Made by a program: the position numbers and the translations under genes. The notes under the pieces were generated by a model. It made no database searches. It had not been told where the DNA came from and worked only from the letters and a program-made list of their open reading frames with translations. Below, piece after piece: positions 12,128-33,555 of a stretch of 47,430 nucleotides of DNA. Source of the stretch: a virus; the UHGV virus genome UHGV-0334146; one strand, written 5' to 3'. Position 1 is the stretch's first letter; the number at the start of each line of letters is the position of its first letter.

Positions 12128-12130
12128 GGT

Positions 12131-16016: not shown

Positions 16017-16019
16017 GGG

Positions 16020-16488: not shown

Positions 16489-16507
16489 CACCGTGAACAA
16501 AGTTCGG
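16489..16507 (-). promoter_or_regulatory. Late-operon conserved motif, copy 1 (tCACCGTGAACAAaGTTCGG)
   Basis: One mismatch to the 18-mer found at four sites. It sits in the 41-nt gap between the ant stop (16508) and the tail-operon start. Confidence 0.5.
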
Positions 16508-17296
16508 CTATGCAGCACGGCGAAGGCGGTACTTGCCCAGCATGTTCAGGTCGTTTTTCAGGGCCAGCCGGAAGGCTTCGATCACGTCGACGTGGTACGC
16601 CTTCACGCTCCCGAAACGGCTGTCCTCGATTTCCCGGATTTCGTAATCCATACGGCGGGACATATCGGAAAGCTTGCGTCCCGCGACGGAGTACGCGGCT
16701 GGCGTATCTGCGAAGACGTCAAGGAACCACGGGATGCCCTTCACGGACTTGTAGTCCCTGCCCCGCCCAAGTTCGTTCTCAAGAGCCGCAGCCTTGCGGA
16801 CGGCTGCGGAGGCGGTTGCCATCGCGGTGGCCTCGCGGTGTGAACCGATTTCGGCCTTGGTGCGGATAGCCTCGTCGCGCTCGGCTTCGATGCGCCTGAT
16901 GGTGTCCTGCGCGACCAGCACGGCGCGGGCGAGGATGGCTTCGGGGGTATCGTCCGGCTTGGCTATCAGGTAACCGCCCACCTTACGAATGGAGGGGATA
17001 ACCTCATGCGTCACCCACCGCTTGAACGCCTTGGCTTCGGGCTTGCGGGAACGCAGGATGAGGGAATACAGGCCCGGTTCGGAAATAATTGTCATTTCCT
17101 GCTTTCCACCGGGGGTGTCCATACTATGGACGCCCTTTTCATCCTCATCCAGAAGTGCAAGGCTTGAACGAGGGTTGCCCATTTCAAGAATATCGCACAC
17201 GTCTTTCGCCACGAACCATGGTTGCACCTTGCGCTCAACAACGCGAAGGGAACCGAACTTTTCATGCTCGAAAAGAGCCAAGGGGGAATTTTCCAT
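16508..17296 (-). CDS. Antirepressor, BRO-N domain with a KilA-C/ANT-like C-terminus
   Basis: Trimmed to M52 (MENSPLALFEHEKFGSLRVVERKVQPWFVAKDVCDILEMGNPRS… is the Bro-N signature), which follows RBS GGAGGTG. The conserved late motif lies 54 nt upstream. Confidence 0.7.
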   Translation of the reverse strand: MENSPLALFEHEKFGSLRVVERKVQPWFVAKDVCDILEMGNPRSSLALLDEDEKGVHSMDTPGGKQEMTIISEPGLYSLILRSRKPEAKAFKRWVTHEVIPSIRKVGGYLIAKPDDTPEAILARAVLVAQDTIRRIEAERDEAIRTKAEIGSHREATAMATASAAVRKAAALENELGRGRDYKSVKGIPWFLDVFADTPAAYSVAGRKLSDMSRRMDYEIREIEDSRFGSVKAYHVDVIEAFRLALKNDLNMLGKYRLRRAA

Positions 17297-17349
17297 CGCT
17301 GCACCTCCATAGTGTTTTGGAGATGATGCCGCATGGCGGCGTGGGGGCA

Positions 17350-17367
17350 CACCGTGAACAAGGTTCG
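17350..17367 (-). promoter_or_regulatory. Late-operon conserved motif, copy 2 (CACCGTGAACAAGGTTCG)
   Basis: Exact 18-mer 54 nt upstream of the antirepressor ATG. A minus-strand terminator lies immediately beyond it. Confidence 0.5.
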
Positions 17368-17374
17368 TACAGGC

Positions 17375-17397
17375 AAAAGAAAAGCCCCTTTCGGGGC
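17375..17397 (-). terminator. Intrinsic terminator on the minus strand
   Basis: Minus strand reads GCCCC-GAAA-GGGGC followed by TTTTCTTTT. It insulates the plus-strand moron block from the late promoter copy. Confidence 0.45.
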
Positions 17398-17470
17398 GGA
17401 GGGCGGCGGCGGTGGATTTTTGGAACGGCCTATGCCATGATAGCCTCATCTATAATAAGGGGGATGATGT

Positions 17471-18070
17471 ATGGCTACCTACATCAAGTTTCTGGCAGGG
17501 GACTACGGGAAAGAAGAATATATTTACATTAAAAATAAAAACAAGTTGCGTTGCTCTTCAAAAATGTTTGGAGCAAAGGAACTTTTTCTTTCCAGTATTG
17601 CCTCTTGCGAAGTAGCCAATGAAGAATCGGTCAAAAAGCTCGGCGGAACTTTGGGAGGCGCACTTGTCGGCGGCGTCTTGCTTGGAGGCATCGGAGCGGT
17701 TGCGGGTGCGGTAGCTGGAGGCAAGACGACTGAGTCTACCGTCATTATTGAGTTCAAAAATGGAAATAAGGCATTGGCAAAGGTGAATAGCCCCATGATG
17801 GAGGTTATCCGCGCACACCTTTTTGATGACCAATTGGCCCAAGAGCGTGGAGAACCAAACCCGCTTATACATCATGAACGTTCTCAGACGCCCCCTAAAA
17901 AAATTGCCCTTATCATTGGAGTGCTGATAACAGTAGTGCTAGCCGTATTGTGGCTGAGTTGTGCCCTCCAAACGCCGCCCAATACGAATGGGGCCTTGTT
18001 ATGGGGAATCCTCACTATCCTTTCCGGACTGTATTCTTGGAAAATCTATAAGAAAATATATAAATCTTAA
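17471..18070 (+). CDS. Glycine-zipper membrane protein (moron)
   Basis: 199 aa. GxxxG repeats (LGGTLGGALVGGVLLGGIGAVAGAVAGG) plus two C-terminal TM helices. About 40% GC against a genome GC of roughly 60%. TATAAT at 17451-17456 and RBS AAGGGGGA lie upstream. Confidence 0.55.
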   Translation: MATYIKFLAGDYGKEEYIYIKNKNKLRCSSKMFGAKELFLSSIASCEVANEESVKKLGGTLGGALVGGVLLGGIGAVAGAVAGGKTTESTVIIEFKNGNKALAKVNSPMMEVIRAHLFDDQLAQERGEPNPLIHHERSQTPPKKIALIIGVLITVVLAVLWLSCALQTPPNTNGALLWGILTILSGLYSWKIYKKIYKS

Positions 18071-18105
18071 TATATTAACTTGAATCCGAACAGGGAGAGA
18101 GGACC

Positions 18106-19176
18106 ATGGATTTTTCGGAAAGAATTGCTGAATTGTCGAAAAAGGTAAAGAATCTGGGAGATAGCCTCAAGACCGAAGAGGCCACGAAAAACGCCTTGGT
18201 GATGCCTTTTATCGCGGCCCTGGGATACGACGTTTTCAACCCTGCGGAAGTCGTGCCCGAATTTTCAGCCCCCATCGGCGAATATAAGGACGCCCGCGTG
18301 GACTATGCGATTCTTGTGGACGGCAAGCCTATCCTTCTTCTAGAGTGCAAGGCTTTGGGCACGTCTCTCGACATGAAGCACTGCAACCAGCTACAGCTTT
18401 ACTTCCACGGAACGGAAGCCCCTATTGCCATTCTGACAGACGGCAACCGCTACCGGTTCTATTCCGATCTTGAAACTGCCAACAAAATGGACAGCAAGCC
18501 CTATATGGAGTTCGTCCTTGACGATATGGACGAAATGCTGCTCCCGGAACTGCGCAAACTGGCAAAGGGCAAGTTTGATCGGGATGCCTGCATGAGCGCG
18601 GCAAACGAACTCAAGTACAACCGAGAGTTCAAACGCCTCATGTCCGAACAAATGGAAAAGCCGCACGAAGATTTCGCGCGCTTTTTCATCGGCCAGACGT
18701 ATGATGGACGTATCACGCAAAACGTTCTGGATCGCTTCACTCCAATCCTTACCGCTGCGCTTGACCAGTTCATCAACGACCGCATCAACGACCGCTTGAA
18801 AAATGCCATGACGCAGCAGAAACCGGAAATTGTAGAGATAGAGTCCGAAGATACCCCACAAGGAAAAGAGCAGGATTCGCGTATAGTCACCACCGAGGAA
18901 GAAAAAGAGGCGTATTACCTTGTCAAATCGCTTCTGATGGGCACCGTTGATCCGGGGCGCGTAGCCATGCGGGACAGTATCAGCTACTGCTCCATCCTTC
19001 TTGACGACAACAGGCTCAAGCCTCTGTGCCGCCTGTATTTCAACGGAAAACAGTGGAGGGTCGGACTGTTTGATGGGGAGAATAAGGACGCAAAGGAAGA
19101 CATCGAAAAACTGGAAGATATTATCCCCTTTGCGGATCGAATCCGGGCTACGGCCTTGAAATACGATAACAAGTAA
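18106..19176 (+). CDS. PD-(D/E)xK nuclease-fold protein with an HSDR_N (type I R-subunit N-terminal)-like domain
   Basis: 356 aa. EEATKNALVMPFIAALGYDVF…VDYAILVDGKPILLLECKALG parallels the EcoKI HsdR …FADYVLFVGLKPIAVVEAKR motif (D…E-x-K). Low GC. RBS GGGAGAGAGGACC precedes the ATG. Confidence 0.6.
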   Translation: MDFSERIAELSKKVKNLGDSLKTEEATKNALVMPFIAALGYDVFNPAEVVPEFSAPIGEYKDARVDYAILVDGKPILLLECKALGTSLDMKHCNQLQLYFHGTEAPIAILTDGNRYRFYSDLETANKMDSKPYMEFVLDDMDEMLLPELRKLAKGKFDRDACMSAANELKYNREFKRLMSEQMEKPHEDFARFFIGQTYDGRITQNVLDRFTPILTAALDQFINDRINDRLKNAMTQQKPEIVEIESEDTPQGKEQDSRIVTTEEEKEAYYLVKSLLMGTVDPGRVAMRDSISYCSILLDDNRLKPLCRLYFNGKQWRVGLFDGENKDAKEDIEKLEDIIPFADRIRATALKYDNK

Positions 19177-19527
19177 AACTTTCCAACGTGGCGTTGCCCG
19201 CCAATGATGAAGAACATCCAGATGCGGGCAATGCCACTGCTTTTCTCTTTACATTTTCCGAGTTTTGTGCTGTCTTTTGTGTACGGGCTTCAGAACCCCG
19301 TAGGCGGACAAACGCCACCCGATAGCATGGCGCTTTTTTATGCCCTTTTTCCAAAGTCAAGAGTTTTTCTTGGCTGTCTTTTGGGCTATTATTGCATCCA
19401 ATGTTTGCCGGGTGTGGCGGATATGTCCAAGCGAAAGCTAAAGGCCGCCAGCGGTTCCTACGCCGTTCTGAACACCCGGCGCTTTCTATTTCAGAGAGTG
19501 TAATTCAGACAATGTAGGAGTTGCATT

Positions 19528-20448
19528 ATGGAAATGGCCCTAATCTTCAACGAATTTATCTTCACGCCTGTCACTCACCAAAACAGTCTCTGGATTCGTT
19601 CTTCTGAATTGGCTAAAGCACTTGGCTATTCCGACGACCGCAAGGTTGGTGTGCTCTATGCCCGACATAAGGATGAATTCTCCAATAATATGAGCGTGGT
19701 TCTCAATTTGAGTACCACGGATGTACCCGCTATGAATCGCATCTTTTCCCTTCGCGGTTGCCATTTGGTTGCGATGCTAGCGCGTACTCCTATTGCCAAG
19801 GCCTTCCGCAAGTGGGTGCTAGACGTCATCGAGCAGTACGGCGACAGGGTGCCAGTTGAAAGCCCTGTGACGCTCAACGATGAGCTGATCAGTGCGGCGG
19901 AACGTGCCGAACTCAAGCTCATCGTAGACGCCAAGCTCTCAACATACCCCGCCGCCGTGCAGGGCAAGGCCCGCGCCGAGATATGGGCGAAGCACAACCG
20001 CCATTTCCGCATCGCGGAATACAGCCAGCTCCCGGCCCGGCTTATGCCCGAGGCCCGCGAGTTTCTGCTTTCCGTCCGCGTCCGCGCCATCAATGCCATA
20101 CCCACGGCGGAATCCGCGATCCCGTACCCGTCGCTTCCCGTCGCATCGTCACTATACCGCGACCGCGTGAGGGAGCTTGAACGGCTCGAACAGGATTGGA
20201 TGGAACTTGCAGTCCTGATCCGCGACCGCGCTTATGGACTGGAACGAGACTTCCGCCGAGTGACGCAAGGAACGTATCCCGAACTGCTCCGGCATGTATC
20301 GCCATCCGGGAAGACGCCCGTTGACGCGCTTATCCAGCTCATGACAGCCCCAACCTACACCGCCCGGCAAAACCTCGAATCCGCGCTTGATGATATGCGT
20401 CTTGCCATCCGTGCCGCGAAGACCGCGAACAGGTTGATGCTAGGGTAA
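19528..20448 (+). CDS. BRO-N domain protein (antirepressor-like)
   Basis: 306 aa. The N-terminal FIFTPVTHQNSLWIRSSELAKALGYSD… is a Bro-N signature. RBS GTAGGAG. Confidence 0.65.
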   Translation: MEMALIFNEFIFTPVTHQNSLWIRSSELAKALGYSDDRKVGVLYARHKDEFSNNMSVVLNLSTTDVPAMNRIFSLRGCHLVAMLARTPIAKAFRKWVLDVIEQYGDRVPVESPVTLNDELISAAERAELKLIVDAKLSTYPAAVQGKARAEIWAKHNRHFRIAEYSQLPARLMPEAREFLLSVRVRAINAIPTAESAIPYPSLPVASSLYRDRVRELERLEQDWMELAVLIRDRAYGLERDFRRVTQGTYPELLRHVSPSGKTPVDALIQLMTAPTYTARQNLESALDDMRLAIRAAKTANRLMLG

Positions 20449-20503
20449 TCCTTGGCAAGCCTACATGAATCATATAAGACTTTACCAACGGAGGGATTCC
20501 CCC

Positions 20504-20815
20504 ATGCTGCTGTTCGATGATGGGAAAAAGCTTGAAAAGGCCGTCGGCGAGGAAGCCGCAAAAGCCATCGTGGAAGTACTGGAACGCTTTGACGAGAGTC
20601 AAAGGAACGCCAGTGCTACCAAGGGAGATCTGCGCGAAACTGAACTGCGGTTGCAAAAAGAAATTCGGGAATTGGACCTGAAAGTGCAAGCGGAGATCGA
20701 AAAAATTCGTGCTGAAGTGTTGAAGGTCAAGTATGATCTTTTGAAATGGCAAATTGCCATAGGGTTTGCCCTTGTCGCAGTTATGGCCAAGGGCTTCGGC
20801 TGGCTCGGATTCTAA
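20504..20815 (+). CDS. XhlA-like coiled-coil membrane protein
   Basis: Trimmed to M14 (RBS GGAGGGA). Coiled-coil N-terminus and a C-terminal TM (WQIAIGFALVAVMAKGFGWLGF). Confidence 0.45.
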   Translation: MLLFDDGKKLEKAVGEEAAKAIVEVLERFDESQRNASATKGDLRETELRLQKEIRELDLKVQAEIEKIRAEVLKVKYDLLKWQIAIGFALVAVMAKGFGWLGF

Positions 20816-20838
20816 TAAAGAAAGAATATCGTAGAAAA

Positions 20839-20872
20839 GGGGTGGCTTTAAGAGCCGCCCCTTTTTGTTTTT
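20839..20872 (+). terminator. Strong intrinsic terminator
   Basis: GGGGTGGC-tttaaga-GCCGCCCC followed by TTTTTGTTTTT, with AAAA upstream. Confidence 0.65.
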
Positions 20873-20915
20873 CTGCCTCTCCCTTCTGTTACTGATGAGT
20901 TAAAAAAGATAAAAC

Positions 20916-20961
20916 TTTTTTTGAAAAAATTGTTTATTTTTTCAAAAAATGGTGCTATTGT
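20916..20961 (+). promoter_or_regulatory. Promoter with a 13-bp inverted-repeat operator upstream of the three-gene moron
   Basis: TTTTTTTGAAAAAA-ttgttta-TTTTTTCAAAAAA (two mutually inverted AT palindromes), then TGcTATTGT as a -10-like element, then RBS AAAGGAGAAG and the ATG at 20994. Confidence 0.45.
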
Positions 20962-20993
20962 ATTTTCAACGAAAGGGTAAAGGAGAAGCCACC

Positions 20994-21497
20994 ATGAAGC
21001 TGTACCACGGAAGCATGATTGAACATTTGGCTATCTCTAACTCAGGAACAGGGTTAGGGTATAACTTCGGAGCGATGTTCTTTGCCCGCACGTATGGAAC
21101 AGCAAAGGGATACGGAGATTACGTCTACCAGTGCGAAGTAGACGTCAAGGATATCTTTTTTACGGAAGACCTTCCGTATCTTGATGACGGTGCTGCGGGA
21201 ACGGCTCTACGTGAAATTATGGAAGAGCGCGGGATAGACGAAATCCATTTTGATCTATGCTGGCAAGCCGTGGTTTCGGAAGAACTGGACTTTCAAGAAC
21301 GAGGAGACTGGGCAGACCTTCTCGGAATGGACGAGGACGACGCGGGTTGGGAGGCTCAGGCCATGCGTATCGCCTTTGCCCGTAAGTTGGGCTTCAAGGC
21401 TGTTGGAATGGATGACGAATGTGGAAGTATCGCGGTTCTTCCCGAGTTCATAAAGCTGGAAGCGTCAACGGAGGCAGACGATGAAGAGGAAGACTAA
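20994..21497 (+). CDS. Small acidic protein; possible minimal PARP-like (H-Y-E class) ADP-ribosyltransferase
   Basis: 167 aa. The N-terminal MKLYHGS…NFGAMFFARTYGTAKGY…YVYQCEVD resembles the PARP catalytic H-G-S, Y-x-F-G-x-G-x-Y-F-A and Y…E elements. The C-terminal 50 aa are highly acidic (…EASTEADDEEED). About 45% GC. The fold assignment is an inference. Confidence 0.45.
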   Translation: MKLYHGSMIEHLAISNSGTGLGYNFGAMFFARTYGTAKGYGDYVYQCEVDVKDIFFTEDLPYLDDGAAGTALREIMEERGIDEIHFDLCWQAVVSEELDFQERGDWADLLGMDEDDAGWEAQAMRIAFARKLGFKAVGMDDECGSIAVLPEFIKLEASTEADDEEED

Positions 21498-22872
21498 GAT
21501 AGACATCGACGATCTTATCGATTTCAGTTCAAAGCTGGTGAACTCGAATTCCAGCATCGGTATTCGCTTGTCGTCGGGTGCCGCGCTCTCCCTTCCGTAC
21601 CTGTCCACGAGGACATGTCTTGCGGCAGGGATTTCTATGCCGCTGGATACGGCAAACGGGGCCAAGGATGTGGGAAAGGTAAGTGCTCTATACAAGACAC
21701 TCGAAGAGGGGGAGGAAGGAGAGAAAGCAGATACAGAGGCGGCATTGAAGAAAATCCGTAAAACAGGATTTGCCAGAAAAACAGAGTCTGTCGACAGACG
21801 GATTCGTCAACTGCTCATCCCTAAAGACGTACCCTCTGGGTATGTCTCTTTGTCTCCCCTCCCCTCCATTGGACTTTCCGTTTTGCTGTTAGGAGCCGTT
21901 ACAAGGCATAATCAAGATGTCTTTTCAAAAAAGAAGGAAGGTATCAAAATTCGACGGGCACATCTCGCTTTGGGCGGGGCAAACCCTCAGAATCTAGGAT
22001 ACGCTGCGTCCAAAAAGGCGATACAATATCCTGTTTTTCTTTCTACACCCAAATCCGTGCGCGGAAATGCCAGCCGTCAGGCGTCAGGAAAGGGAACTTA
22101 CCTGATCCTTTCCAATCTCTTTGTGCAAACGGCAAACATCTTGACGAATTATACTATGCTCAACGGCGCGCCCCTCTTTGCAGCATGGGGGATGGGACAT
22201 GCACTGGAGCGCGAGATGCATGGTCCCAAAGTTACCGGAGTATGCCTTGTTGTGCATAGCATCGAACCCCTTGGGGAGCATGAAACCGCTATTTTCGAGC
22301 CTAGCCAAAGATTAGGAGCGGCTTTTACTTTTGAAAAATCCCGTAACGGGAGCGACTACGCAAAAGGCTCCACACATCTCTCTTTGCAGCCCGGTGCAAC
22401 GGGGCATATACGGGTGAGCCTTATCTTTGAACTGTCGGAAGCCCTGCATTCCGTACCGAACGCCGTGGATCTTTTCTTGAACTTCGGAAAGTTCTCCGGT
22501 GGGCTGATCACTTCATACGACGCCCCGGCTTTGCATGATGACCGCTCTACGCTTCTAGAGTGCATTCCCGCCGGGAAAGTTGTTTTGGATCGGCGCGACG
22601 TTATGAGCCCTGGAAACCCCATTGAACAGCTTGTAACCGCGATAGGAACGTACAGCGGAAAATGGCTGTCCGCAACGAATATCGGTTTTTCAGCAATCAC
22701 AGACTTTCAAGTTCGCGGAGGGGCACGGAACGGGTGCCTCCATGCTTTTGCGGAGCCGCTGATCGGCATTACAGAATACGTCTCTACTGAAAAGAGGATA
22801 CACGGGTATTTCTGGCGCAGCCAGTGGGAAGAAGATAGCTTTTTGATGAGGGGAGATTCAACAAATGAATGA
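21481..22872 (+). CDS. Hypothetical 463-aa protein with no recognisable domain
   Basis: It overlaps the preceding gene by 17 nt and the following gene by 8 nt, which indicates translational coupling. Low GC. No Walker, HTH or nuclease motifs were recognised. Confidence 0.55.
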   Translation: MKRKTKIDIDDLIDFSSKLVNSNSSIGIRLSSGAALSLPYLSTRTCLAAGISMPLDTANGAKDVGKVSALYKTLEEGEEGEKADTEAALKKIRKTGFARKTESVDRRIRQLLIPKDVPSGYVSLSPLPSIGLSVLLLGAVTRHNQDVFSKKKEGIKIRRAHLALGGANPQNLGYAASKKAIQYPVFLSTPKSVRGNASRQASGKGTYLILSNLFVQTANILTNYTMLNGAPLFAAWGMGHALEREMHGPKVTGVCLVVHSIEPLGEHETAIFEPSQRLGAAFTFEKSRNGSDYAKGSTHLSLQPGATGHIRVSLIFELSEALHSVPNAVDLFLNFGKFSGGLITSYDAPALHDDRSTLLECIPAGKVVLDRRDVMSPGNPIEQLVTAIGTYSGKWLSATNIGFSAITDFQVRGGARNGCLHAFAEPLIGITEYVSTEKRIHGYFWRSQWEEDSFLMRGDSTNE

Positions 22873-23086
22873 TGCACAAGAAAAAAAGCAGGGGGGACGC
22901 CGTAAAGGATCTGGACGTAAAAAAAAGGTTGAAAATCGTGCAACAGTAAAGACTGTATCTATGCCGGATCATGTCTGGGAACGGCTGAACGATGTATGTA
23001 CGGATAGGGGTATCCTACGCTCACAGGTAGTACGGGAAGCAGTCGAGATGTGGCTGGACGCAAATATACAGCAGCTTGGAAAATGA
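22865..23086 (+). CDS. Ribbon-helix-helix (CopG / ParD-like) DNA-binding protein
   Basis: 73 aa. A basic N-terminus is followed by …TVKTVSMPDHVWERLNDVCTDRGILRSQVVREAVEMWL, a classic RHH β-α-α pattern. Confidence 0.6.
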   Translation: MNDAQEKKQGGRRKGSGRKKKVENRATVKTVSMPDHVWERLNDVCTDRGILRSQVVREAVEMWLDANIQQLGK

Positions 23087-23099
23087 CGCCTGACTACGT

Positions 23100-23140: not shown

Positions 23141-23159
23141 CATGGAGGGAAGGATGGGA

Positions 23160-24173
23160 CTAGGCTCCAGTCATTTGCGCAAAGGCAAAGGGCATGAGCA
23201 CGATACCGCCGTAGGTGGTGCCGACGAACTTCTGACGGAAGCTGGACAGGTCGGGCACGACGCGTCCAGCACGCATCTTTTCTCCGAAGGCCAGCGTGCC
23301 GGATCGCTGCCCGTTCACTTCGGGGGCGATGAGGAACATGGTTTCCCCGGCGGTCATGCTGTGCAGCTCGGGGACGGTCACGATGTCAATGCGGGTGAAG
23401 TACCGCTTCAACATATCCAGCACGGACACGTTGAAATCGGTAGCCGCGCCGAGGCGAACGGCCAGTTCGGGGGAGAGGCAGAGCTTGAGGGGCGTGTCTT
23501 TGTCAATAAGGCCGCTGGACTGCTCGGAAAGCTGTGCGAACAGGGCGAGGACGTCGTTGTAGATTTGCACCGTGGTCTTGTCGGCCCATTTCGTGGAGCC
23601 GCCCGTGCCCGTGGCCCCTGCGGTGATCGCAGCAGGGAGGTTCGGATCGTTGAGGATGCCGTAGATTTCCTTCCCGGCGACGCCGAGCAGGTAGAAACGG
23701 TTCTGGTCGATGTCGATGACGTTGGCGGCCGCACGCTGCTTGGAGGCAGCGAGGTTGACTTTCGCCGTGCTCGACATGTCCACTTCAAAGTCTCCGTAGG
23801 TGATGGACGTCTGGAAGACGTACTGCACGCGGGTTTGCCATTCGGAGTTCACGCCCGAAGTCGTGCCGTTGGCATAGTCGGAATACGGCTCGGTCTTTCC
23901 GGTCATTTCGTCCACGCGCCACTTCATGTACGGGGTCGTCCAATCGCCCTTCTTCTCTTCACCGAAGATTTCACGGGCGCGCCGGGGCGCGGTCAGGATT
24001 TCGATGACCATCGGGTCGATATACGCCAGAAGCTCGGCGGGGACGGTCGTGTTCGGAGTAGTGATGAGCGCGGCGTCCTGCGCAATGCGGGCGCGGTTCT
24101 CCGGAGTTGCCCACATGCGGGCGCCCGGGAAGATAAAGCCGTAGCGCTTGGCCTGTTCAAAAGTCGGATTCAT
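23160..24173 (-). CDS. Major capsid protein
   Basis: 337 aa. It is the last gene of the portal→protease/scaffold→capsid operon. RBS AGGAGGTACTAC-ATG. Confidence 0.6.
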   Translation of the reverse strand: MNPTFEQAKRYGFIFPGARMWATPENRARIAQDAALITTPNTTVPAELLAYIDPMVIEILTAPRRAREIFGEEKKGDWTTPYMKWRVDEMTGKTEPYSDYANGTTSGVNSEWQTRVQYVFQTSITYGDFEVDMSSTAKVNLAASKQRAAANVIDIDQNRFYLLGVAGKEIYGILNDPNLPAAITAGATGTGGSTKWADKTTVQIYNDVLALFAQLSEQSSGLIDKDTPLKLCLSPELAVRLGAATDFNVSVLDMLKRYFTRIDIVTVPELHSMTAGETMFLIAPEVNGQRSGTLAFGEKMRAGRVVPDLSSFRQKFVGTTYGGIVLMPFAFAQMTGA

Positions 24174-24183
24174 GTAGTACCTC

Positions 24184-24822
24184 CTACGCTCCGGCGGCGG
24201 CTGCGCCGAGGTTGGTGCGGGCCTGTTCCGCAGTGGTTGCGCCAGTTCCGCCGTTGGCCACGCCGAGCGCTCCGGTGGCGTTGCTGAAATCTTTCTGCAT
24301 CAGGTTCGAGGTGTCGCCGCCGGATCCCGACGCTGCGGCCTGTCCCCAATTGCTGATGATGATCGGTTCCCCGATTTCGCCGGGCGTCTTGACGACCCAC
24401 CCCGTATCGAGGTGCGTGGCGTCGGGGGTCCCGGTGCTGATTGAACCGTCAGCGGTGGAGGCAAGGACAGCCTGCCCCACCGTGGCCTTGGTCGTGGAAA
24501 CGGCCCAATAGTCGCCCTTTACGGCCACGGTGAGGTTCGAGCCTGCCGGGACGGTCAAAGTGCCGTCAGAAAGCAGTTCGTAGTTCACGTAGTTGATGAC
24601 GCGCTCCACGAAGCCGAGCACGGCTGTGGCGGTGCCAGCAACGTTGGTGGCCTGCGTGTTGTCGATCACGCCGGAATCCACGACGGGGAAGACGAAGCGC
24701 CCCACAGGGAGGGCCACCGCCGCCAGAGGGTTGAGCGGGGTGTAGATGCTCTGGTCGGGCGTCGCTTTATCGCCAGCAACGCCGGGAGCGACGGAGAGAT
24801 TGACTTGGGACTGCAAAGGCAT
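24184..24822 (-). CDS. Head structural / decoration-like protein (hypothetical)
   Basis: Trimmed to M41 (strong RBS AGGAGG). Gly/Thr-rich. It sits between the scaffold and capsid genes. Confidence 0.4.
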   Translation of the reverse strand: MPLQSQVNLSVAPGVAGDKATPDQSIYTPLNPLAAVALPVGRFVFPVVDSGVIDNTQATNVAGTATAVLGFVERVINYVNYELLSDGTLTVPAGSNLTVAVKGDYWAVSTTKATVGQAVLASTADGSISTGTPDATHLDTGWVVKTPGEIGEPIIISNWGQAAASGSGGDTSNLMQKDFSNATGALGVANGGTGATTAEQARTNLGAAAAGA

Positions 24823-24832
24823 GGTGTGCCTC

Positions 24833-26548
<1,716 letters not shown>

Positions 26549-27331
26549 CTAGTCTCCAAATTCAGGAATAACGGCCCGGTACGTGCATTGGCACCCCGGA
26601 AGCTCACCGCAAAGCACTTTGCGCTTCACGTCAGAGTCGTAAAGACCTTCCGTGATGACGAACTTTTTCCCATTCATGAGCTGGTGGGTATGGCGGCTCG
26701 TTTTCTTTCCCGGCACATGTACCCAGACGCCTTCGGTGATGCCGAGTTCCTTGTCCTGTACCCGCTTGATGGCCTCGGTCGCCTTGTTGGATTGATCGCG
26801 AGCAATGAATTCGGCCCGGCGCCGGGTGATCTCGTACCGCTTGTGCAGTTCGTCGGCGAGGAACTCCACGTCCCTGCCCATGCTGGCGGAACGCTGTACT
26901 AGCCCCGTTACTTCCGTGAAATAGTGCTGCGGAATGGATTTGATGAGATTGACATTTTCCTCGAAGAGGGCCCGCGCCACGTCGCTCATGGCCCTGCTTC
27001 CCTCCATCCTCACCGTGAAGCCCGCATCTTTGAGGGCCTGCCTCATCCCGGCTTCCGTGCGCCGCCTCGTACTGCCCACGAACTCCCGTGCAAAACTCTC
27101 CGCGCTTTCCCTCCACCGCTTCGTCCAGTACCGGAACAGGCTCTTGAGGCGGTCTTGTAGGTCACTCGCCGGGGACGCATCCTGTGCTATGCGGGTTTCC
27201 TGCTTCCTGTACTCGGCGCGCAGCCACCACACGACGGAACGCTGCATCTCGTCGAGAAGCGACACCAGCCGCTTCCGGTATTTCGCCCGGATGCCCGCGT
27301 TGGGCTTGATGGCGCGGATGACCTTAGCCAT
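26549..27331 (-). CDS. Minor head morphogenesis protein (Mu F / SPP1 gp7-like)
   Basis: 260 aa directly after the portal gene. C-terminal …GVWVHVPGKKTSRHTHQLMNGKKF… resembles the Phage_Mu_F motif. Confidence 0.55.
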   Translation of the reverse strand: MAKVIRAIKPNAGIRAKYRKRLVSLLDEMQRSVVWWLRAEYRKQETRIAQDASPASDLQDRLKSLFRYWTKRWRESAESFAREFVGSTRRRTEAGMRQALKDAGFTVRMEGSRAMSDVARALFEENVNLIKSIPQHYFTEVTGLVQRSASMGRDVEFLADELHKRYEITRRRAEFIARDQSNKATEAIKRVQDKELGITEGVWVHVPGKKTSRHTHQLMNGKKFVITEGLYDSDVKRKVLCGELPGCQCTYRAVIPEFGD

Positions 27332-28868
27332 AGACGGCCCCTGCCTTGTCCACGTCGTCGATGTCGGGCATCAAGCCCCCTTCCCCGGCTTCCGGCAGGG
27401 CGTCGGGCATTCCGTTGCCCTGCGGCACTTCCGCCGGGTCTATGTCGGAGAAGCCGCTGTCCGGGTCACTGGCAAGGGACTGCCGGGCCTCTTCCTGAGA
27501 GATGATGTCCCGATCCATGTAGACGGCGATGGTGTCGGCCTTGGTCTTCTGGAGCGTCGCAAGGGCTGCCCTGTCCTCTTCGCCGAGGGGCGCGAAGTCG
27601 AAAGTCACGGAAGGGTCGATGGTTCCGCGCAGGTAGAGCTGAATACAGTCGAGCGCCTTCTTGATGCCGTCGCGCAGGACTTTCTCCTGCTGGCTCCTGA
27701 CATGGTCGTAGTAGTTGCGGATGTCCGATTCGCCCGTGGCATTGAACCCTGACGGGCTGATGCCAAGCAGCTTGACCGCCGGAGTGCGGTTCAGGGCGGC
27801 GAGAATTTCAAGGGACTGGCGCACGATGTCGGTCACGCCGGAAAGCGGGGTTTCCAGCTTGACCACGTCTTCTGATTCTTTGTCGACGGCAAGCACGCCG
27901 TCATTGGTCATGGACTGGATCATGTACCGGATGCGTGCATCGATCTGTGCCGTGCCCCCCGACGCGTACAGGATGTCTTCCATCTTCGTCTTGAAGACGG
28001 TCAGCGAAAACTTGGTCAGCAGCCGGGCTTCGGCGGCGCGGCATTCCTGAAAATGCAGGACGTAATCCCAGAGGATCTGAGCTTGTGGGATGCCCAAAAA
28101 ATTGTAGGCTGGACGGAGCAGCACCGGGCATTCGTTCGCAACCAATCGGATGAGGCGCGAGGCGTGCACCCGCTGCCCGAGCACCCACCACCAGCGCGGG
28201 CGGAAGTAGTCCGGCTCAAGCGGCGAAAGGCTGTTGTAGTCTCCGGGGAAGACGTTCACGGGGTCGATGACGACGAAGCGCAGCACGCCGCCGGGCCTGA
28301 GTTCGGCGGAATACGGGCTGACGTTCAGCGGGCGTTCCAGCTCTTCCCCGACTGCTCCGGTGTCGATGAAAAGGAAGGCCCCGCCCTCGTACCCCACAAG
28401 CTCGGTCGCCTCATGGAAAAGGCGTTGCAGTGCGAACCTCTTGCACGCCTGCGCAAGGTCGGTGAGCAATGACTCGTCGCCGCCCTCCCCTTCGCGCTTG
28501 AACTCAATCCATGCTCGGGTCATGTCGTCGGATACCGTCTCGACGCAGGCACGGATCAATCCATTCTGGGCAAGGTTCTGGAGGACGCCGTAGCCCATGA
28601 ATTGCGGCGCAATCCCGACCCCAAGCTCAAGCGAGTGCTGGAGCAGGGAATAGACGCCGGAATCCGCAAGCCGCGCATCCATCGCAAGCTGCACCTCTTC
28701 GGGCGCGCCGAGCGTCTTCGCAGGACCGTACAACCGGCTGATGTCGTCGGGCGTAGGTGGCAAAGACTGAGCAAGGCCGCCGCGCACGTCCGGGGAGAGA
28801 TTCAGACGGCGCGACGGTTGCACTTGAGGTATGGAGGTGGCGTGTCGATAAGTGCGCTTCTTGCTCAT
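27324..28868 (-). CDS. Portal protein
   Basis: 514 aa. It is the first gene of the head operon, with the late motif 34 nt upstream. Acidic C-terminus. Confidence 0.65.
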   Translation of the reverse strand: MSKKRTYRHATSIPQVQPSRRLNLSPDVRGGLAQSLPPTPDDISRLYGPAKTLGAPEEVQLAMDARLADSGVYSLLQHSLELGVGIAPQFMGYGVLQNLAQNGLIRACVETVSDDMTRAWIEFKREGEGGDESLLTDLAQACKRFALQRLFHEATELVGYEGGAFLFIDTGAVGEELERPLNVSPYSAELRPGGVLRFVVIDPVNVFPGDYNSLSPLEPDYFRPRWWWVLGQRVHASRLIRLVANECPVLLRPAYNFLGIPQAQILWDYVLHFQECRAAEARLLTKFSLTVFKTKMEDILYASGGTAQIDARIRYMIQSMTNDGVLAVDKESEDVVKLETPLSGVTDIVRQSLEILAALNRTPAVKLLGISPSGFNATGESDIRNYYDHVRSQQEKVLRDGIKKALDCIQLYLRGTIDPSVTFDFAPLGEEDRAALATLQKTKADTIAVYMDRDIISQEEARQSLASDPDSGFSDIDPAEVPQGNGMPDALPEAGEGGLMPDIDDVDKAGAVYG

Positions 28869-28901
28869 GTGCCCATAATGCTACGAGCCAAAAAGAAAAC
28901 A

Positions 28902-28919
28902 CACCGTGAACAAGGTTCG
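28902..28919 (-). promoter_or_regulatory. Late-operon conserved motif, copy 3 (CACCGTGAACAAGGTTCG)
   Basis: Exact 18-mer 34 nt upstream of the portal ATG, in the divergent region shared with the plus-strand endA-like gene. Confidence 0.5.
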
Positions 28920-29004
28920 GGGGGCTTGGCTGTGGGACACCTTTCATATTGTATCAATATAGATTAATCTATATATACATGGATACCTTTAGGGAGGTAT
29001 CCGC

Positions 29005-29751
29005 ATGTACAAAAGCATCATGGTGTTTCTGCTGGCCGCGCTGGTTATGACGTCCGAGGCGCAGGCCGCGGGCAACGAATGGAACGATTCGTTCAGCAAG
29101 GCCAAGAAGACGCTGGAACGGCAGGTCTATTATGACCATCGGATCACGCTCTACTGCGGGGCGGCGTTCGACGAGAAGAAGAACGTCACCCTGCCGGAGG
29201 GTTTTACTGCCGCGAAGCACGAGAAGCGGGCCGGGAAGGTGGAATGGGAACACGTGGTCCCCGCCGAGAACTTCGGGCAGGCTTTTCCGGAGTGGCGCGA
29301 GGGGGACGCACAGTGCGTGGACGCGAAGGGGAAGGCATTCAAGGGCCGCAAGTGCGCGGAAAAGGTGAACCGGGAATACCGCCTCATGCAAAGCGACATG
29401 TACAACCTCTATCCGGCCATCGGTGCGGTCAACGCCCTGCGCCAGAATTACAACTTCCAGATGCTGCCCGGCGAGGAGCCGGATTTCGGAAGCTGCGGGA
29501 TGAAGATCGCCGACCGCAGGGCCGAGCCGCCCGTCCGGGCGCGGGGACAAATTGCCCGGACCTACAAGTATATGGCCGACGCCTACGCCCCGCGCTACCG
29601 CATGAGCCGCCAGCAGACGCAGCTCATGGACGCATGGGACAAGATGTATCCGGTTGATGCGTGGGAATGCACGCGGGCCAGACGTATTGAAAGACTACAA
29701 GGTAACGAGAACCCTTTTGTGAAGGAAAGATGTCAAGAAGCAGAACTCTAA
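29005..29751 (+). CDS. endA: Secreted endonuclease I (EndA / Dns family periplasmic or extracellular DNase)
   Basis: 248 aa. Signal peptide MYKSIMVFLLAALVMTSEAQA|AG. Strong colinear similarity to E. coli EndA: KVEWEHVVPAENFG, SDMYNLYPAIGAVNALRQNYNF, AEPPVRARGQIARTYKYM, SRQQTQLMDAWDKMYPVDAWECTRARRIERLQGNENPFVKERC. It has its own AT-rich promoter (TTGTAT-17-TATATA) and RBS AGGGAGGT. Confidence 0.85.
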   Translation: MYKSIMVFLLAALVMTSEAQAAGNEWNDSFSKAKKTLERQVYYDHRITLYCGAAFDEKKNVTLPEGFTAAKHEKRAGKVEWEHVVPAENFGQAFPEWREGDAQCVDAKGKAFKGRKCAEKVNREYRLMQSDMYNLYPAIGAVNALRQNYNFQMLPGEEPDFGSCGMKIADRRAEPPVRARGQIARTYKYMADAYAPRYRMSRQQTQLMDAWDKMYPVDAWECTRARRIERLQGNENPFVKERCQEAEL

Positions 29752-29765
29752 CTCTTTACATTCAT

Positions 29766-31229
29766 TTATATTCTCCTTCCCATACGTGGCTGATTGAGGA
29801 TGGCGGGGTTGATGCACATGGGCCGCTTGGTATCGAAATCACGCAGCGCCTGTGTTGTGGCGTCCACTTGGTCGTCGTGGGGCGCACCGGGGAACTGTGT
29901 CAGTTCCGCGACGTACTCCCGCGCCCACGGGCAATGCTCAGGGTGCGGGAGCAGGACGTTCCCGGCCTCGAAGAACGTGGTCACGGCATGGGCCCGGGCC
30001 GTCTTGCTGCCGTCCGGCTCCACGGGGATGATACCGGGCACAGCATGTTTCAGCGCGTCGATAACCGCCGGGCCGTTGGCCTTATCCTCCACCAGCTTAC
30101 GGGCTGCGCCGGGCCATTTAGCGGCGAGCGCCCGGAACGCGGCGACCGTATCCGTAAATCCCATGCGCCGCCGGACCTGATCGAGGAGGTAGCGGTCGGC
30201 CCCCTTGCGGCCCCACACCTGCCCCACAACAAAGTCGGTATCGTCGCCGTCTTTGAACGTCATATCCCACGAGATAAGGAGCTGGTCGAACTGCTCCGGA
30301 AGGTCTTTGGGGAGCCAGAACCGCAGCCACTCGGATTTGAAGATGGCGCCGCCGTCTGGCGTAGGCCGCTGCTGGTACAGGGCTTCCCAGTCGCGTGTGC
30401 CGAGGGCTTTCTTAATGGCAAGAAGCTGCTCCAACGGGTAGCGTTCAGGGTGTAAGGCTTCACCTGCCCTACGGTGCAGCTCGTCTTCCGTTGCGATGGC
30501 GGGGAAGTTCACTACGCGCCAGTGGTCGCCCTCCCCCCGTGCGGCGGCCTCAAGCAGCCTCCCTGAGAGGTCAGCCATGTGCCAGCGAGTGTTGATGATG
30601 AGCACCCCTCCACCGGGCGCGAGGCGCGTGTACAGCGTGGACGTGTACCAGTCCCAGACGTTCTGGCGGATGGTCGGGGAATCGGCGGACGCCCGGTCCT
30701 TGAACGGGTCGTCGACGATGACGATATGCCCGCCCATGCCCGTGATGCCGCCGCCCACGCCAGCGGAACGGTAGCATCCAGCGTGCCCCACTACCTCGAA
30801 TATATCCGAGTTGCGGAGGTAAGAGCCGTTCCCTACGGTGCGGATGTTCTTGCCATAGAGGGCTGTTCCCGGGAAGAGTTCCCGGTATTCCGGGCTGTCG
30901 ATGACGCGCTGGACGTCGCGGTTCATGCGCGAGGACAGGTCGGCGGCGTAGCTCGTGGAAATAACGGATAGATCGGGATAGCGGCCCAAGGCGTAAGCCG
31001 GGAAGCGGCGGGAGGCGAGCTCGCTTTTCCCGTGGCGCGGGGGCATAGTCAGCATGAGGCGCGGGGAACGCCCGGCTACGACATCTGCAAGGAAAGCGTC
31101 AAGCTCGGAACAGATTTCCTCATGTACCCATCCCATGCGGTAGCTGGGCATGGTGTAGCGCACGAAGGCCGCGAGACAGCTACGGGCCAGTGCCTTCCGG
31201 ATATCGGAAAGGATGGCGGGGCTACTCAT
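29766..31229 (-). CDS. terL: Terminase large subunit
   Basis: 487 aa. ATPase and nuclease regions are present (…LTMPPRHGKSE…, …VIVDDPFKD…). Its start overlaps the terS stop. Confidence 0.85.
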   Translation of the reverse strand: MSSPAILSDIRKALARSCLAAFVRYTMPSYRMGWVHEEICSELDAFLADVVAGRSPRLMLTMPPRHGKSELASRRFPAYALGRYPDLSVISTSYAADLSSRMNRDVQRVIDSPEYRELFPGTALYGKNIRTVGNGSYLRNSDIFEVVGHAGCYRSAGVGGGITGMGGHIVIVDDPFKDRASADSPTIRQNVWDWYTSTLYTRLAPGGGVLIINTRWHMADLSGRLLEAAARGEGDHWRVVNFPAIATEDELHRRAGEALHPERYPLEQLLAIKKALGTRDWEALYQQRPTPDGGAIFKSEWLRFWLPKDLPEQFDQLLISWDMTFKDGDDTDFVVGQVWGRKGADRYLLDQVRRRMGFTDTVAAFRALAAKWPGAARKLVEDKANGPAVIDALKHAVPGIIPVEPDGSKTARAHAVTTFFEAGNVLLPHPEHCPWAREYVAELTQFPGAPHDDQVDATTQALRDFDTKRPMCINPAILNQPRMGRRI

Positions 31230-31761
31230 GATCCGGCGTTTTGAAGGCTTCCTTCGTCAGGCGAAGCAGCTCGTCCGGGGAGAGGTGTGAGAGATCCACC
31301 GGACGCTGAGATAGGGAACCGTCGGATGAAGTGTGATCCAAGGCGGTTTTGTCCACGATGCCCCACGCCTTGCGCTCTCCCTCCTGCCGGATCTTGATCG
31401 TCTCGGCGGTGATCTTGGCGAGCTTGGCCTTGTCGAAGCTGCCCTCGGACAAAGCCTCATCAATAAGAGCCTGATGCCGATCCCATTCCCGTTGGTGGCG
31501 GGTGATGACGGCGGCCTTGGCTTCGGCGGCGCGGTCCAAGGCTTCGGCCTTTTTTTGAGGGTTGCAGCCTGCAACCACGCCCACAACCTTGGCCTCTGCC
31601 ATGCGGTTCACGGTGCCGGAAATATCCTGCACCCATCCTTCGGCCCGGATGCGCTTTTGTATTGCCGTCCGGCTCACACCGTACCGCTTGGACAGATCGG
31701 ACTGGCTCGCCCCTACTTCGTACTCGGCACGGATGGATTCCCAATCAAATCGTGCAGCCAT
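31222..31761 (-). CDS. terS: Terminase small subunit
   Basis: 179 aa. N-terminal HTH SQSDLSKRYGVSRTAIQKRI. It lies immediately upstream of terL with an overlapping stop and start. Confidence 0.6.
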   Translation of the reverse strand: MAARFDWESIRAEYEVGASQSDLSKRYGVSRTAIQKRIRAEGWVQDISGTVNRMAEAKVVGVVAGCNPQKKAEALDRAAEAKAAVITRHQREWDRHQALIDEALSEGSFDKAKLAKITAETIKIRQEGERKAWGIVDKTALDHTSSDGSLSQRPVDLSHLSPDELLRLTKEAFKTPDHE

Positions 31762-32206
31762 CGTCGCACCCCCCGTTTGACCTGCGTTCTTCCTGTTCTC
31801 TCAAAAAACTTTCATGCCCTCGTTTCTCCTCTTCCTCGGGCCTCGTACTGTGCGTCAAATCATACTCCCAGGGGGCCCTTTTCCTCTTCAAATGCGGACA
31901 CCGGTGACCGGTCTGATAGGACACCGGTGTCCGGTCCACTCTTCCAGTACTCTTTCCAGAACCGGCAGCCAAAACCGAGGAGCGTCCGGTTGCCGTGGAA
32001 GTGAACACCCCGGAGGATACGAGCGCAGCAACGGCCCTGCGCACTGTTCGCACAGACACGCCGCACTCCTGCGCGACGGTTTCCTGCCGCACGCGGATTT
32101 TTCCGGTCCGTTTGTCCATGTGTAGGGCGAGCACCATACCTACAAGCTTTTCCGTTGGAGGAAGTTCTGCCTGAAGAAGCTGACGCTGGAGCGCGTAGGT
32201 GTCCAT
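31745..32206 (-). CDS. Winged-helix (HTH_36-like) DNA-binding protein; the C-terminal half is doubtful
   Basis: The N-terminal 70 aa form a clear HTH (LPPTEKLVGMVLALHMDKRTGKIRVRQETVAQECGVSVRTVRRAVAALVSSGVF). The C-terminal half is low-complexity and contains two palindromic DNA repeats, so it may be non-coding. Confidence 0.4.
   Translation of the reverse strand: MDTYALQRQLLQAELPPTEKLVGMVLALHMDKRTGKIRVRQETVAQECGVSVRTVRRAVAALVSSGVFTSTATGRSSVLAAGSGKSTGRVDRTPVSYQTGHRCPHLKRKRAPWEYDLTHSTRPEEEEKRGHESFLREQEERRSNGGCDDGCTI
31895..31936. repeat. Two direct copies of a 14-16-bp palindrome (CCGG(A/T)CACCGGTGTCC), 24 bp centre to centre, about 135-175 nt upstream of terS
   Basis: GGACACCGGTGTCC is a perfect 14-bp palindrome and GGTCACCGGTGTCC is a near-palindrome. 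It is a candidate pac or regulator-binding site. Confidence 0.45.
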
Positions 32207-32223
32207 TCATGCACAGGGCATTC

Positions 32224-32496
32224 TCAAAACATCCGGCCCACAATGGCACCGATGCAACCGCCAACTCCCGAGAGGGCGGTTATGATGGCGATGGCCGTTG
32301 TCCTGCTGCCCTGCCGCTCCCCGCGTTCCCGCGCGCACGTCTCGGCCATAACCGAGATATGATCCTCAAGATCCCGAATGCGTTTTCCATGATCGCGGAG
32401 TTGCGTGAGTATCGCGTCGTCAAGCCGCTGGTTGAGCGCTTCGAGCAATGCCTCAATGCGGGAAAGCCGGGATTCGTGGTCCAGTGTATGCTCCAT
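32224..32496 (-). CDS. XhlA-like lysis-associated membrane protein
   Basis: 90 aa. Coiled-coil N-terminus and a C-terminal TM (TTAIAIITALSGVGGCIGAIVGRMF). It is the last gene of the lysis cassette. Confidence 0.4.
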   Translation of the reverse strand: MEHTLDHESRLSRIEALLEALNQRLDDAILTQLRDHGKRIRDLEDHISVMAETCARERGERQGSRTTAIAIITALSGVGGCIGAIVGRMF

Positions 32497-32819
32497 CAGC
32501 TTCCAGCCTCAACGCCCTTGATCCACAGGAGCAGGTTCCCGGCCTCTCCTGCGGGCAGGTGCACCCACTCGCCGGGCTCGGTGAACGTCTCGCCCCGGTA
32601 GGTGTAGGACCACTCACCCGTCACGACGGCCCCCGGCGTCAGCGGAGCCGGGCTTGTCGCGGCGGTCGGTTCCGCCCATCGAGCGCACCCACTCGCCGCC
32701 AGCGTCATCACAAACAGCAGCGCGATCAGCCTCGCGGCGTTCGCCGTACCGTTGACGCAGCCACAGCGTGATGAGTTCAACGAACGAGGTGAGGAACTCA
32801 AGGACGGCCCGCACATCAC
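32496..32819 (-). CDS. Lipoprotein, probable o-spanin-like (Rz1-like) protein
   Basis: 107 aa. Lipobox …LIALLFVMTLAASGC. Its start overlaps the holin stop. Confidence 0.45.
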   Translation of the reverse strand: MMCGPSLSSSPRSLNSSRCGCVNGTANAARLIALLFVMTLAASGCARWAEPTAATSPAPLTPGAVVTGEWSYTYRGETFTEPGEWVHLPAGEAGNLLLWIKGVEAGS

Positions 32820-33106
32820 TTTCCCGTCACGGCCTTGACTTCGGCCTTCACGGTTTCGGACTTGCCGTCAGCCACGGCCCCCCTGTTCTGCCCGAAGTGC
32901 GCGGCAAGGGCGTGCGTCCAACGGTAGAAGGCGGCATAAAGCCCGGTCTGTTCCTTGGGGACGGGCATCCAGACGGTGGCCACGGCGCACAGGCCGCACA
33001 CGGTCATGACCACGCCGAGGGAGGTCACGAGCCACGCCGCATCGGGATACTGCGCGGAAAGGCTCATCAAGGTCGAAAGGATGAAATCAATCACGGTCGC
33101 TTCCAT
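32816..33106 (-). CDS. Holin (putative)
   Basis: 96 aa. Hydrophobic TM core (AWLVTSLGVVMTVCGLCAVATVWM) and a charged C-terminus. It lies directly downstream of the endolysin gene. Confidence 0.45.
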   Translation of the reverse strand: MEATVIDFILSTLMSLSAQYPDAAWLVTSLGVVMTVCGLCAVATVWMPVPKEQTGLYAAFYRWTHALAAHFGQNRGAVADGKSETVKAEVKAVTGK

Positions 33107-33492
33107 CAGTACTTGCCTCCATGCTGGTAGAACGCCACGTCACGCGGCTTGTCCGGGTCGTTGTCCACATGAATCCACGTCGGGGCCAGCTCGATGCGCC
33201 GGAATCCGACTTCAAGCAGGGCTTGCAGCATGACGAAACGGGAATGGGAATCCACACAGCGGATATCCACAGCGTAGCCGCGAGTGTGCGCTGAGGTGGG
33301 CACGCCGCCGACCGCCTTGTTGTGCTTCGGGCAGCGGTACGCGGAAGAAAGGGGGAACGGGATGCCCGCCAGATCGCGGGCCTCATCGAGCATCTGGAGC
33401 AGATCGGCGTCCATCTTCTCCATGCCCGCGCCGCACCCGCACTTGCAGCGGAATTCGAGGGGAGAGAAGTGACGCAAGGGAAGAACAGCCAT
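33106..33492 (-). CDS. Endolysin, peptidase M15 (Zn D-Ala-D-Ala carboxypeptidase / L-Ala-D-Glu peptidase fold)
   Basis: Trimmed to M36 (RBS AGGAGGA). Zn-ligand pattern SAHTRGYAVDI … WIHVD (H-x6-D … H) typical of Peptidase_M15_3. Confidence 0.8.
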   Translation of the reverse strand: MAVLPLRHFSPLEFRCKCGCGAGMEKMDADLLQMLDEARDLAGIPFPLSSAYRCPKHNKAVGGVPTSAHTRGYAVDIRCVDSHSRFVMLQALLEVGFRRIELAPTWIHVDNDPDKPRDVAFYQHGGKY

Positions 33493-33538
33493 AAAAATCC
33501 TCCTGCATCCACTCTCGCACAAGAGAATAGGGGGAGGA

Positions 33539-33555
33539 CACCGTGAACAAGGTTC
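33539..33555 (-). promoter_or_regulatory. Late-operon conserved motif, copy 4 (CACCGTGAACAAGGTTC)
   Basis: It lies 47 nt upstream of the endolysin ATG and abuts the stop codon of the Mor-like gene (33555-33557). Confidence 0.5.

Follow-up and report, generated by a model that had tools for sequence, protein, structure and literature searches.

In phage Mu, the middle promoter Pm carries a dyad for the activator Mor at −51 to −36, centred at −43.5, and has no −35 element (PMC4287176). The Mor stop codon is followed by the Pm region and the stop codon of the second activator, C, by Plys and the endolysin gene, whilst in RcapMu, a Mu-like phage of Rhodobacter, gp27 is followed by the endolysin gene. 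Several late operons of phages P2, P4 and 186 also share an upstream activator site and have poor −35 elements, and are served by a small phage activator (Ogr, Delta and B, respectively) that contacts the host RNA polymerase; these activators, however, are zinc-finger proteins unrelated to Mor and C, and their site is a TGT-N12-ACA dyad near −55. In lambda, the late regulator Q is an antiterminator that acts at a single promoter, PR′, and reads through terminators. The element described here is an 18-bp box present in four copies in UHGV virus genome UHGV-0334146, a stretch of 47,430 nt (hereafter the window) that is an integrated temperate myovirus of Bilophila, its gene map being drawn from protein-family scans. 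The initial annotation, made from the sequence alone, had proposed the box as a candidate late promoter or site of a Mor-like activator, and the geometry of the sites, their position, the adjacent activator gene, conservation and upstream terminators support that proposal in silico.

With a probability of roughly 0.75, a Mor/C-family activator encoded by the phage itself uses the box as its operator, and the box, combined with a −10 element and no −35 element, makes up four activator-dependent late promoters, here termed P_lys, P_portal, P_ant and P_tail. The repeat, its geometry, its conservation, the order of the genes and the protein family assignment were established directly. The arrangement is most likely a known kind of phage switch, Mor/C-type late control, occurring here in an unstudied phage group.

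The whole window was searched for matches to CACCGTGAACAAGGTTCG, tolerating up to three mismatches, with 100 shuffles as control. Four matches were obtained, with one mismatch in boxes 1 and 4 and none in boxes 2 and 3, against an expectation of 0.07, and none of the 100 shuffles gave four. All four matches to CACCGTGAACAAGGTTCG were on the plus strand, so the box reads CGAACCTTGTTCACGGTG along the minus-strand late genes. Every box was intergenic and oriented along its downstream gene, the distance from box end to start codon being 55, 53, 33 and 47 nt for boxes 1 to 4, respectively. The initial annotation had listed the same four same-orientation copies with at most one mismatch, 34–56 nt upstream (33–55 nt as measured here) of the first tail gene, the antirepressor, portal and endolysin genes, and both the copies and the identity of these genes were confirmed, the endolysin type by way of homologues. 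Its coordinates were correct for copies 2 and 3, but the ends of copies 1 and 4 (16506 and 33556) had been misplaced by one position. The last copy had been placed at the stop of a Mor-family activator gene, and box 4 does overlap the TAG. Pairwise identity between the four window copies was 94 % within the box but 24–30 % in the 39 nt upstream, in the 21-nt spacer and in the region after the −10 element, with a second identity peak (0.61) at the −10 element itself.

Two weaker copies that had also been reported do exist, GGAACTTGTTCACC at 37889–37902 (+) and CCTTGTTCAC at 47347–47356 (+), the latter not at 47343–47352 as originally given. Neither was accepted as a functional box. Both were judged to be chance matches because the shared core is only an 8–10-mer, GGTG is absent and their frequency is what chance allows (we estimate about 1.4 chance occurrences of an 8-mer in the window); GGAACTTGTTCACC was present in one of 77 loci.

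A −10-like hexamer begins 21 or 22 nt after the last G of every box in the window. A σ70 consensus scan called none of the four sites, which are therefore regarded as lacking a −35 element; the corresponding window reads TGATTT, TGTGCC, TGTGTT or TGTCCT. With the hexamer set at −12 to −7, the box occupies −51 to −34 relative to the predicted transcription start (+1). NANNNT was found at an offset of 21 or 22 in 15 of 16 representatives of the promoter classes, compared with 0.10 per promoter in a shuffled control. In 58 unique contexts, taken from the window and from relatives, information downstream of the box peaked at C−12, A−11, T−10, A−8 and T−7, and the predicted +1 was an A in 51; TGn and NAGNGT were conserved in P_lys of the relatives. 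The sites thus present a box over the −35 region (as placed by the predicted +1), a −10 element without a −35 element, and the same box heading several late operons, as in Mor/C-type promoters. The spacers between box and −10 element (16468–16488, 17329–17349, 28881–28901 and 33517–33538, minus strand) were pyrimidine-rich and nearly free of A on the coding strand, and no A occurred at −29, −27, −25 to −24, −22 to −19 or −17 in the 58 contexts. P_tail (16455–16447) and P_ant (17316–17308), both on the minus strand, have a common initial transcribed sequence, CCAAAACA, right after the −10 element, which suggests that one of the two promoters arose by duplication of the other.

The portal promoter gave an independent view of the predicted start site. 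The portal ATG (28868) is the seventh base past the −10 element, which is the predicted +1; it lacks a Shine–Dalgarno sequence and is preceded, at a distance of five codons, by an in-frame TAG. Among relatives, the 6-nt gap between the −10 element and the portal ATG was constant in length but variable in sequence (gggcac, gctccc, gccctc, gccccc or ggcccc), and changes at third codon positions place the start of portal coding at this ATG. The gap and the codon pattern therefore fit the predicted start site independently, and suggest that the mRNA of the portal/head unit would be leaderless.

The protein encoded at box 4 is the last product of the early rightward operon (in order: cro-like, cII-like, replication, RusA and activator genes) and has a C-terminal helix–turn–helix (HTH). 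It matched PHROG 836, ‘late transcriptional activator’, at 1.8e-14. The Pfam family Mor (PF08765) was matched by nine of 12 close homologues (69–95 % identity; best 1.1e-7). An hhalign comparison of the group profile with an alignment in which Mu Mor, Mu C and RcapMu gp27 were joined by two bridging sequences found with the group's own profile gave 98.8 % with an E value of 1e-16 over 116 columns. Among annotated proteins, the late activator of RcapMu matched it best (34 % identity, spanning 84 % of the protein). Searching PDB sequences with a profile of the activator alignment failed to retrieve Mu Mor, and fold searches with an AlphaFold model (mean predicted local distance difference test score 79) matched only generic HTH domains, Mu Mor not being among the matches. 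At the profile level, the window phage thus encodes a Mor/C-family (PF08765) activator, the only Mor-family gene in the window. The recognition helix, GVTTRYVRRL, was invariant among activators of 69–98 % identity, and a homologue with 98 % identity was found in Bilophila wadsworthia ATCC 49260, the prophage of which has these boxes as well (L001, L069 and L071). Upstream of RusA, a further Mor-family gene is present in some relatives (L013, 295–711; L014, 2388–2807), encoding 138–139 aa with 28 % identity to the late activator, which recalls the succession of Mor and C in Mu; in the window, this place is taken by an unrelated 142-aa ORF.

Compared with Mu Pm, the predicted place of the box, −51 to −34, is nearly that of the Mor dyad, a −35 element is lacking in both, and the site starts right after the stop codon of the activator in both (PMC4287176). 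Pm, however, is a single promoter for the next regulator, whereas the window sites would drive structural and lysis genes directly; the box is only partly dyadic, and a TGn-extended −10 element, lacking in Pm, is present in three of the four window promoters. The resemblance to the promoters that depend on C, namely Plys, PI, PP and Pmom, extends to four late promoters with one shared activator site over a −35 region that is weak or absent, and to the placing of the activator gene, which directly precedes the first late promoter and the endolysin gene (PMC4461284). As with C, the activator is a small HTH protein of the Mor/C family, and lysis, head, and tail or baseplate genes have one promoter each. 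RcapMu gp27, the closest annotated homologue of the activator, is also encoded directly upstream of an endolysin gene, so that the order of activator, box over the stop codon and endolysin in the window is the order in Mu and RcapMu. Unlike Mu, the window has no separate Mor-then-C middle stage, a single activator ending the early operon, and one unit is predicted to be leaderless. RcapMu, like Mu, is transposable, whereas the tyrosine integrase, CI-, Cro- and CII-like proteins, replication initiator, TerS and TerL indicate that the window phage has a lambdoid organization and is not transposable; as a Mu-like transposable phage, judged by transposase A/B, Mu-type ends and a Mor and C cascade, it was rejected. 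Its late regulator occupies the slot of lambda Q, the last early gene just before the lysis genes. Antitermination of the Q type was nevertheless discarded, since there are four dispersed promoters, each with its own −10 element and often preceded by a terminator, and the protein in the Q slot is of the Mor/C family.

Conservation was assessed in 15 loci fetched by way of activator homologues (69–98 % identity), without use of the motif. In all 15, a box followed right after the activator stop codon and occurred again ahead of portal or baseplate genes. Random intragenic copies in relatives would have spoken against a promoter role; no intragenic or antisense box was found in these loci when as many as four mismatches were tolerated. 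When IMG/VR was scanned for exact matches, 62 stretches on about 40 contigs were returned, all but one from this phage group. The 130 box occurrences were reducible to a small number of classes by junction (lysis, portal, antirepressor, tail, a 90-aa gene and a baseplate ‘sheath-initiator’ gene), each class being represented by a single box on a contig, and phages having at most five boxes. At the lysis junction of relatives, an M15 peptidase or an unrelated lysozyme stood behind the same box. Many boxes in relatives had an intrinsic terminator on the late strand 12–18 nt upstream, and at least five different hairpin-plus-T-run terminators were seen. A megablast search of 16000–34500 against GenBank phages gave no matches, and an annotated close relative is thus absent from GenBank phages.

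The initial annotation had the boxes exactly where late transcription must restart after genes inserted on the opposite strand. This did not hold: only two of the four boxes (portal and antirepressor) come after such inserts, the other two following same-strand genes. In relatives in which TerL and the portal gene adjoin (L008 and L035), the portal box is kept, so that the boxes are standing features of the junctions, and the places where inserts land are just upstream of the boxes.

In a sister lineage, the activator shows 53 % identity and has the recognition helix GVTERYVRIL. The boxes of this lineage, TTGAACAAGTTCAGGGTG and TAGAAGTCGTTCAGGGTG, stand before endolysin and packaging genes and are followed, 21 nt on, by TGgCACAGT or TGgCATGGT; GTTCAGGGTG, the 21 nt and TGgCAnnGT are retained at this greater evolutionary distance, that is, the right 10 bp and the geometry, whilst the left half differs and is shifted by 1 bp. 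A gapped scan of IMG/VR for GTTCAGGGTG-N18/19-TGGCA returned mostly chance matches, and for the most distant activator homologues (P0022 and P0023) the contigs were too short for a box to be defined. In the sister-lineage phage L078, three 28-nt repeats, GAAACACCCCCACATGTGTGGGGAAGAC, 61 nt apart (12610–12862), precede a 24-nt tandem duplication just upstream of the second late box; the repeat with its 33-nt spacer resembles a mini CRISPR array.

The proposed sequence of events is as follows. The promoters would be read by the host σ70-type RNA polymerase. The activator would accumulate at the end of early transcription, bind at about −51 to −34, overlapping the −35 region, and recruit RNA polymerase, as Mu Mor and C do. 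Four units could then be started: unit 1 with the lysis and terminase genes, unit 2 from portal to capsid on a leaderless mRNA, unit 3 with the Bro-N antirepressor, and unit 4 with the genes for connector, tail, baseplate and fibres. A unit would be closed by a terminator or by an insert on the opposite strand, and the next box would open the following one.

Several observations weigh against an operator for the Mor-like protein. The start sites are predicted, and binding of the box by the activator and late timing are likewise inferred. The activator itself scored just under the Pfam Mor threshold (23.1 bits, cut-off 24.9). The symmetry of the box is limited to GAAC-N3-GTTC (centre −45) and CAC-G-GTG (centre −37), and its invariant bases reach asymmetrically to −34, so that it is not a full dyad, unlike Mor and C sites. 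No sequence similarity was found between the box, GAACCTTGTTCACGGTG, and the long CCGG-containing dyads that follow the C and Mor stops in Mu; the initial annotation had likewise stated that the motif matches neither the known Mu C nor Mor sites. The relatives are fairly close, and part of the conservation is therefore due to shared descent. No covariation of activator and box could be demonstrated: the G at −38 of the sister lineage, considered as a counterpart of its altered recognition helix, was rejected as such, as the same G occurs in the P_lys box of L098, where this C/G change is tolerated with an unchanged helix.

The box is tied to the Mor-like protein by position and synteny only, and its incomplete dyad symmetry is atypical for Mor/C sites; it might thus mark late promoters that are read by another factor, such as a host regulator, the CII-like protein, a 153-aa HTH protein (32206..31745), the Bro-N protein or an alternative σ factor of the extracytoplasmic function (ECF) type with GAAC as its −35 element. 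GAAC resembles ECF −35 motifs. Nothing is conserved at the ECF spacing of 16–17 nt past GAAC, however, the conserved element being the σ70-like NANNNT 21–22 nt past GGTG, and there was no σ-factor match among the window proteins scanned; the ECF reading was rejected on both counts. CII-type activators drive lysogeny promoters rather than structural genes, and the CII site TTGC-N6-TTGC is absent. In every relative, the box comes after the stop codon of the Mor-like gene, the arrangement of Mu and RcapMu. We regard another factor as unlikely.

An operator for the Mor-like activator also accounts better for the promoters than a repressor operator or silencing site that would keep the late genes and inserts off in the lysogen, which we consider very unlikely. 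The position over the −35 region would suit a repressor, and a CI-like repressor is encoded in the window, but promoters with no −35 element and a weak −10 element should be inactive unaided and require no repressor; moreover, no box is present in the divergent region between cro and cI, the place expected to hold immunity operators, and the gene next to the box is of an activator family.

Among relatives, one downstream promoter occurs behind three or four upstream flanks that are unrelated to one another; the flanks, and even the gene behind the box, differ between relatives, and the mosaic breakpoints fall exactly at the 5′ edge of the box. This is what a sequence serving mainly recombination or module boundaries (a linker for homologous exchange, or a nuclease or homing target) with no transcriptional role would produce. 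Such a role does not account for the fixed distance of the −10 element, the prevalence of A at +1, the unvarying sense orientation, the terminators upstream or the predicted leaderless start of the portal gene, and a shared promoter would in any case provide a recombination linker incidentally; the probability of this role is slightly lower still. Least probable is an element acting in RNA (for processing, put/nut-like antitermination or translation of a long late transcript), which would be transcribed if P_lys read through and whose GAAC/GUUC could pair as a 4-bp hairpin, as folding of the four box regions gave no common fold (z-scores −0.30, −2.45, +0.29 and +0.20), an Rfam scan of the window matched no family, and the distance from box to start codon varies between 33 and 55 nt whilst that from box to −10 element is fixed.

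The positions of the promoter elements and of the main genes are given in Table 1.

Table 1. Promoter elements, late units and other genes of the window (nt, nucleotides; aa, amino acids)
Feature	Position	Strand	Remarks
Box 1 (P_tail)	16489..16506	-	CGAACTTTGTTCACGGTG; begins 2 nt past antirepressor stop codon
Box 2 (P_ant)	17350..17367	-	CGAACCTTGTTCACGGTG
Box 3 (P_portal)	28902..28919	-	CGAACCTTGTTCACGGTG
Box 4 (P_lys)	33539..33556	-	AGAACCTTGTTCACGGTG; overlaps TAG stop of Mor-like gene
−10 of P_tail	16462..16470	-	Extended, TGcCATGAT; hexamer 21 nt past box; predicted +1 near A16455
−10 of P_ant	17323..17328	-	CATCAT; 21 nt past box; predicted +1 near A17316
−10 of P_portal	28875..28880	-	CATTAT; 21 nt past box
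−10 of P_lys	33511..33519	-	Extended, TGcGAGAGT; 22 nt past box; predicted +1 near A33504
Intrinsic terminator before box 2	17374..17397	- (late strand)	Hairpin GCCCCGAAAGGGGC (17397..17384), then T-run TTTTCTTTTG
Mor/C-family late activator gene (putative)	33555..33923	-	122 aa; last gene of early rightward operon; stop codon (TAG) overlapped by box 4
TerL, TerS and lysis genes	33491..29766	-	TerL 31229..29766; TerS 31761..31222; holin/spanin-like small ORFs after endolysin
Endolysin-type gene	33106..33491	-	First of late unit 1; M15-peptidase type by homologues (Peptidase_M15_3)
Capsid, protease/scaffold, Mu-F-like and portal genes	28868..23160	-	Protein-family scans
Portal	27324..28868	-	Downstream of box 3
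Bro-N antirepressor-like	16508..17296	-	Pfam Bro-N 7.1e-25, PHROG 130; one-gene late unit, flanked by boxes 2 and 1
Tail, baseplate and fibre genes	16433..2523	-	Sheath 14097..12592; tail-fibre assembly 3062..2523
First gene of tail/connector unit, phrog_2085	16020..16433	-	Downstream of box 1
Endonuclease I gene	29005-29751	+	Insert ahead of portal box
Low-GC insert	17471-23086	+	Ahead of antirepressor box
RusA, replication initiator, methyltransferase, HNH protein, CII-like and Cro-like	Beyond activator gene	-	Protein-family scans
CI-like repressor	38419-39165	+	Then leftward operon with Erf (+)
Integrase (tyrosine)	1209-2237	+	Protein-family scans

The endolysin-type protein of the window itself had no Pfam match. 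The opposite-strand inserts directly upstream of boxes varied between relatives, whose portal junction holds either a ParA-like gene or one for 208 aa. A broader and distinctly more tentative proposal, which we hold to be possible but doubtful, combines these features: terminator, box, −10 element and gene might form a portable late-expression cassette, with the box serving also as a recombination joint of the phage group. Under this proposal, genes such as those for the Bro-N antirepressor and the 90-aa protein would have been added as complete late units under activator control; inserts on the opposite strand (endonuclease I, ParA-like and Cas8f/Cas5f-like) would land just upstream of boxes; the head unit would be expressed on a leaderless mRNA from the portal start codon; and a Mor-family protein would read an asymmetric site unlike the Mu dyads.

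No paper on late regulation of Bilophila phages was found in the literature collection searched. The assignments made here provide a testable map of late regulation in temperate phages of Bilophila wadsworthia, a clinically relevant sulfite-reducing bacterium of the gut, consisting of one activator, its operator, four predicted starts and a predicted leaderless mRNA. They would place Mor/C-type control in a non-transposable lambdoid phage, with the activator in the slot of lambda Q. The box is usable for annotating late operons and cargo genes in related metagenomic phages, and could be an inducible promoter part for an organism that is genetically poorly tractable.

The low-GC insert has a G+C content of 50 %, compared with about 60 % for the phage, and encodes an HSDR_N-domain protein, a second Bro-N protein and a 463-aa protein (21481–22872, +) that looks like a fusion of Cas8f and Cas5f. 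PADLOC assigned residues 10–193 of the latter to Cas8f (2.8e-20) and residues 208–453 to Cas5f (1.9e-21); Pfam Cas_Csy2 was matched at 1.9e-10, and there was a weak PDB match to a 695-aa Cas8. No cas7, cas6 or cas3 gene and no repeat array was found nearby. The fusion-like protein could act as a decoy or an anti-CRISPR protein, or be what remains of a type I-F3-like system.

Two smaller features were noted in the early region. Within the replication-initiator gene (35137..36252), a 22-nt unit, CCGTATCTACGTTCGTACAACG, occurs in about 2.5 tandem copies at 35691–35749 and looks like origin iterons. Between the cro-like and cII-like genes, a hydrophobic ORF of 23 codons, MLNNFFLAVAVGLVMLVVFMPRD, lies at 38021–38092 (−) and has the Shine–Dalgarno-like sequence GAGGTGAG.

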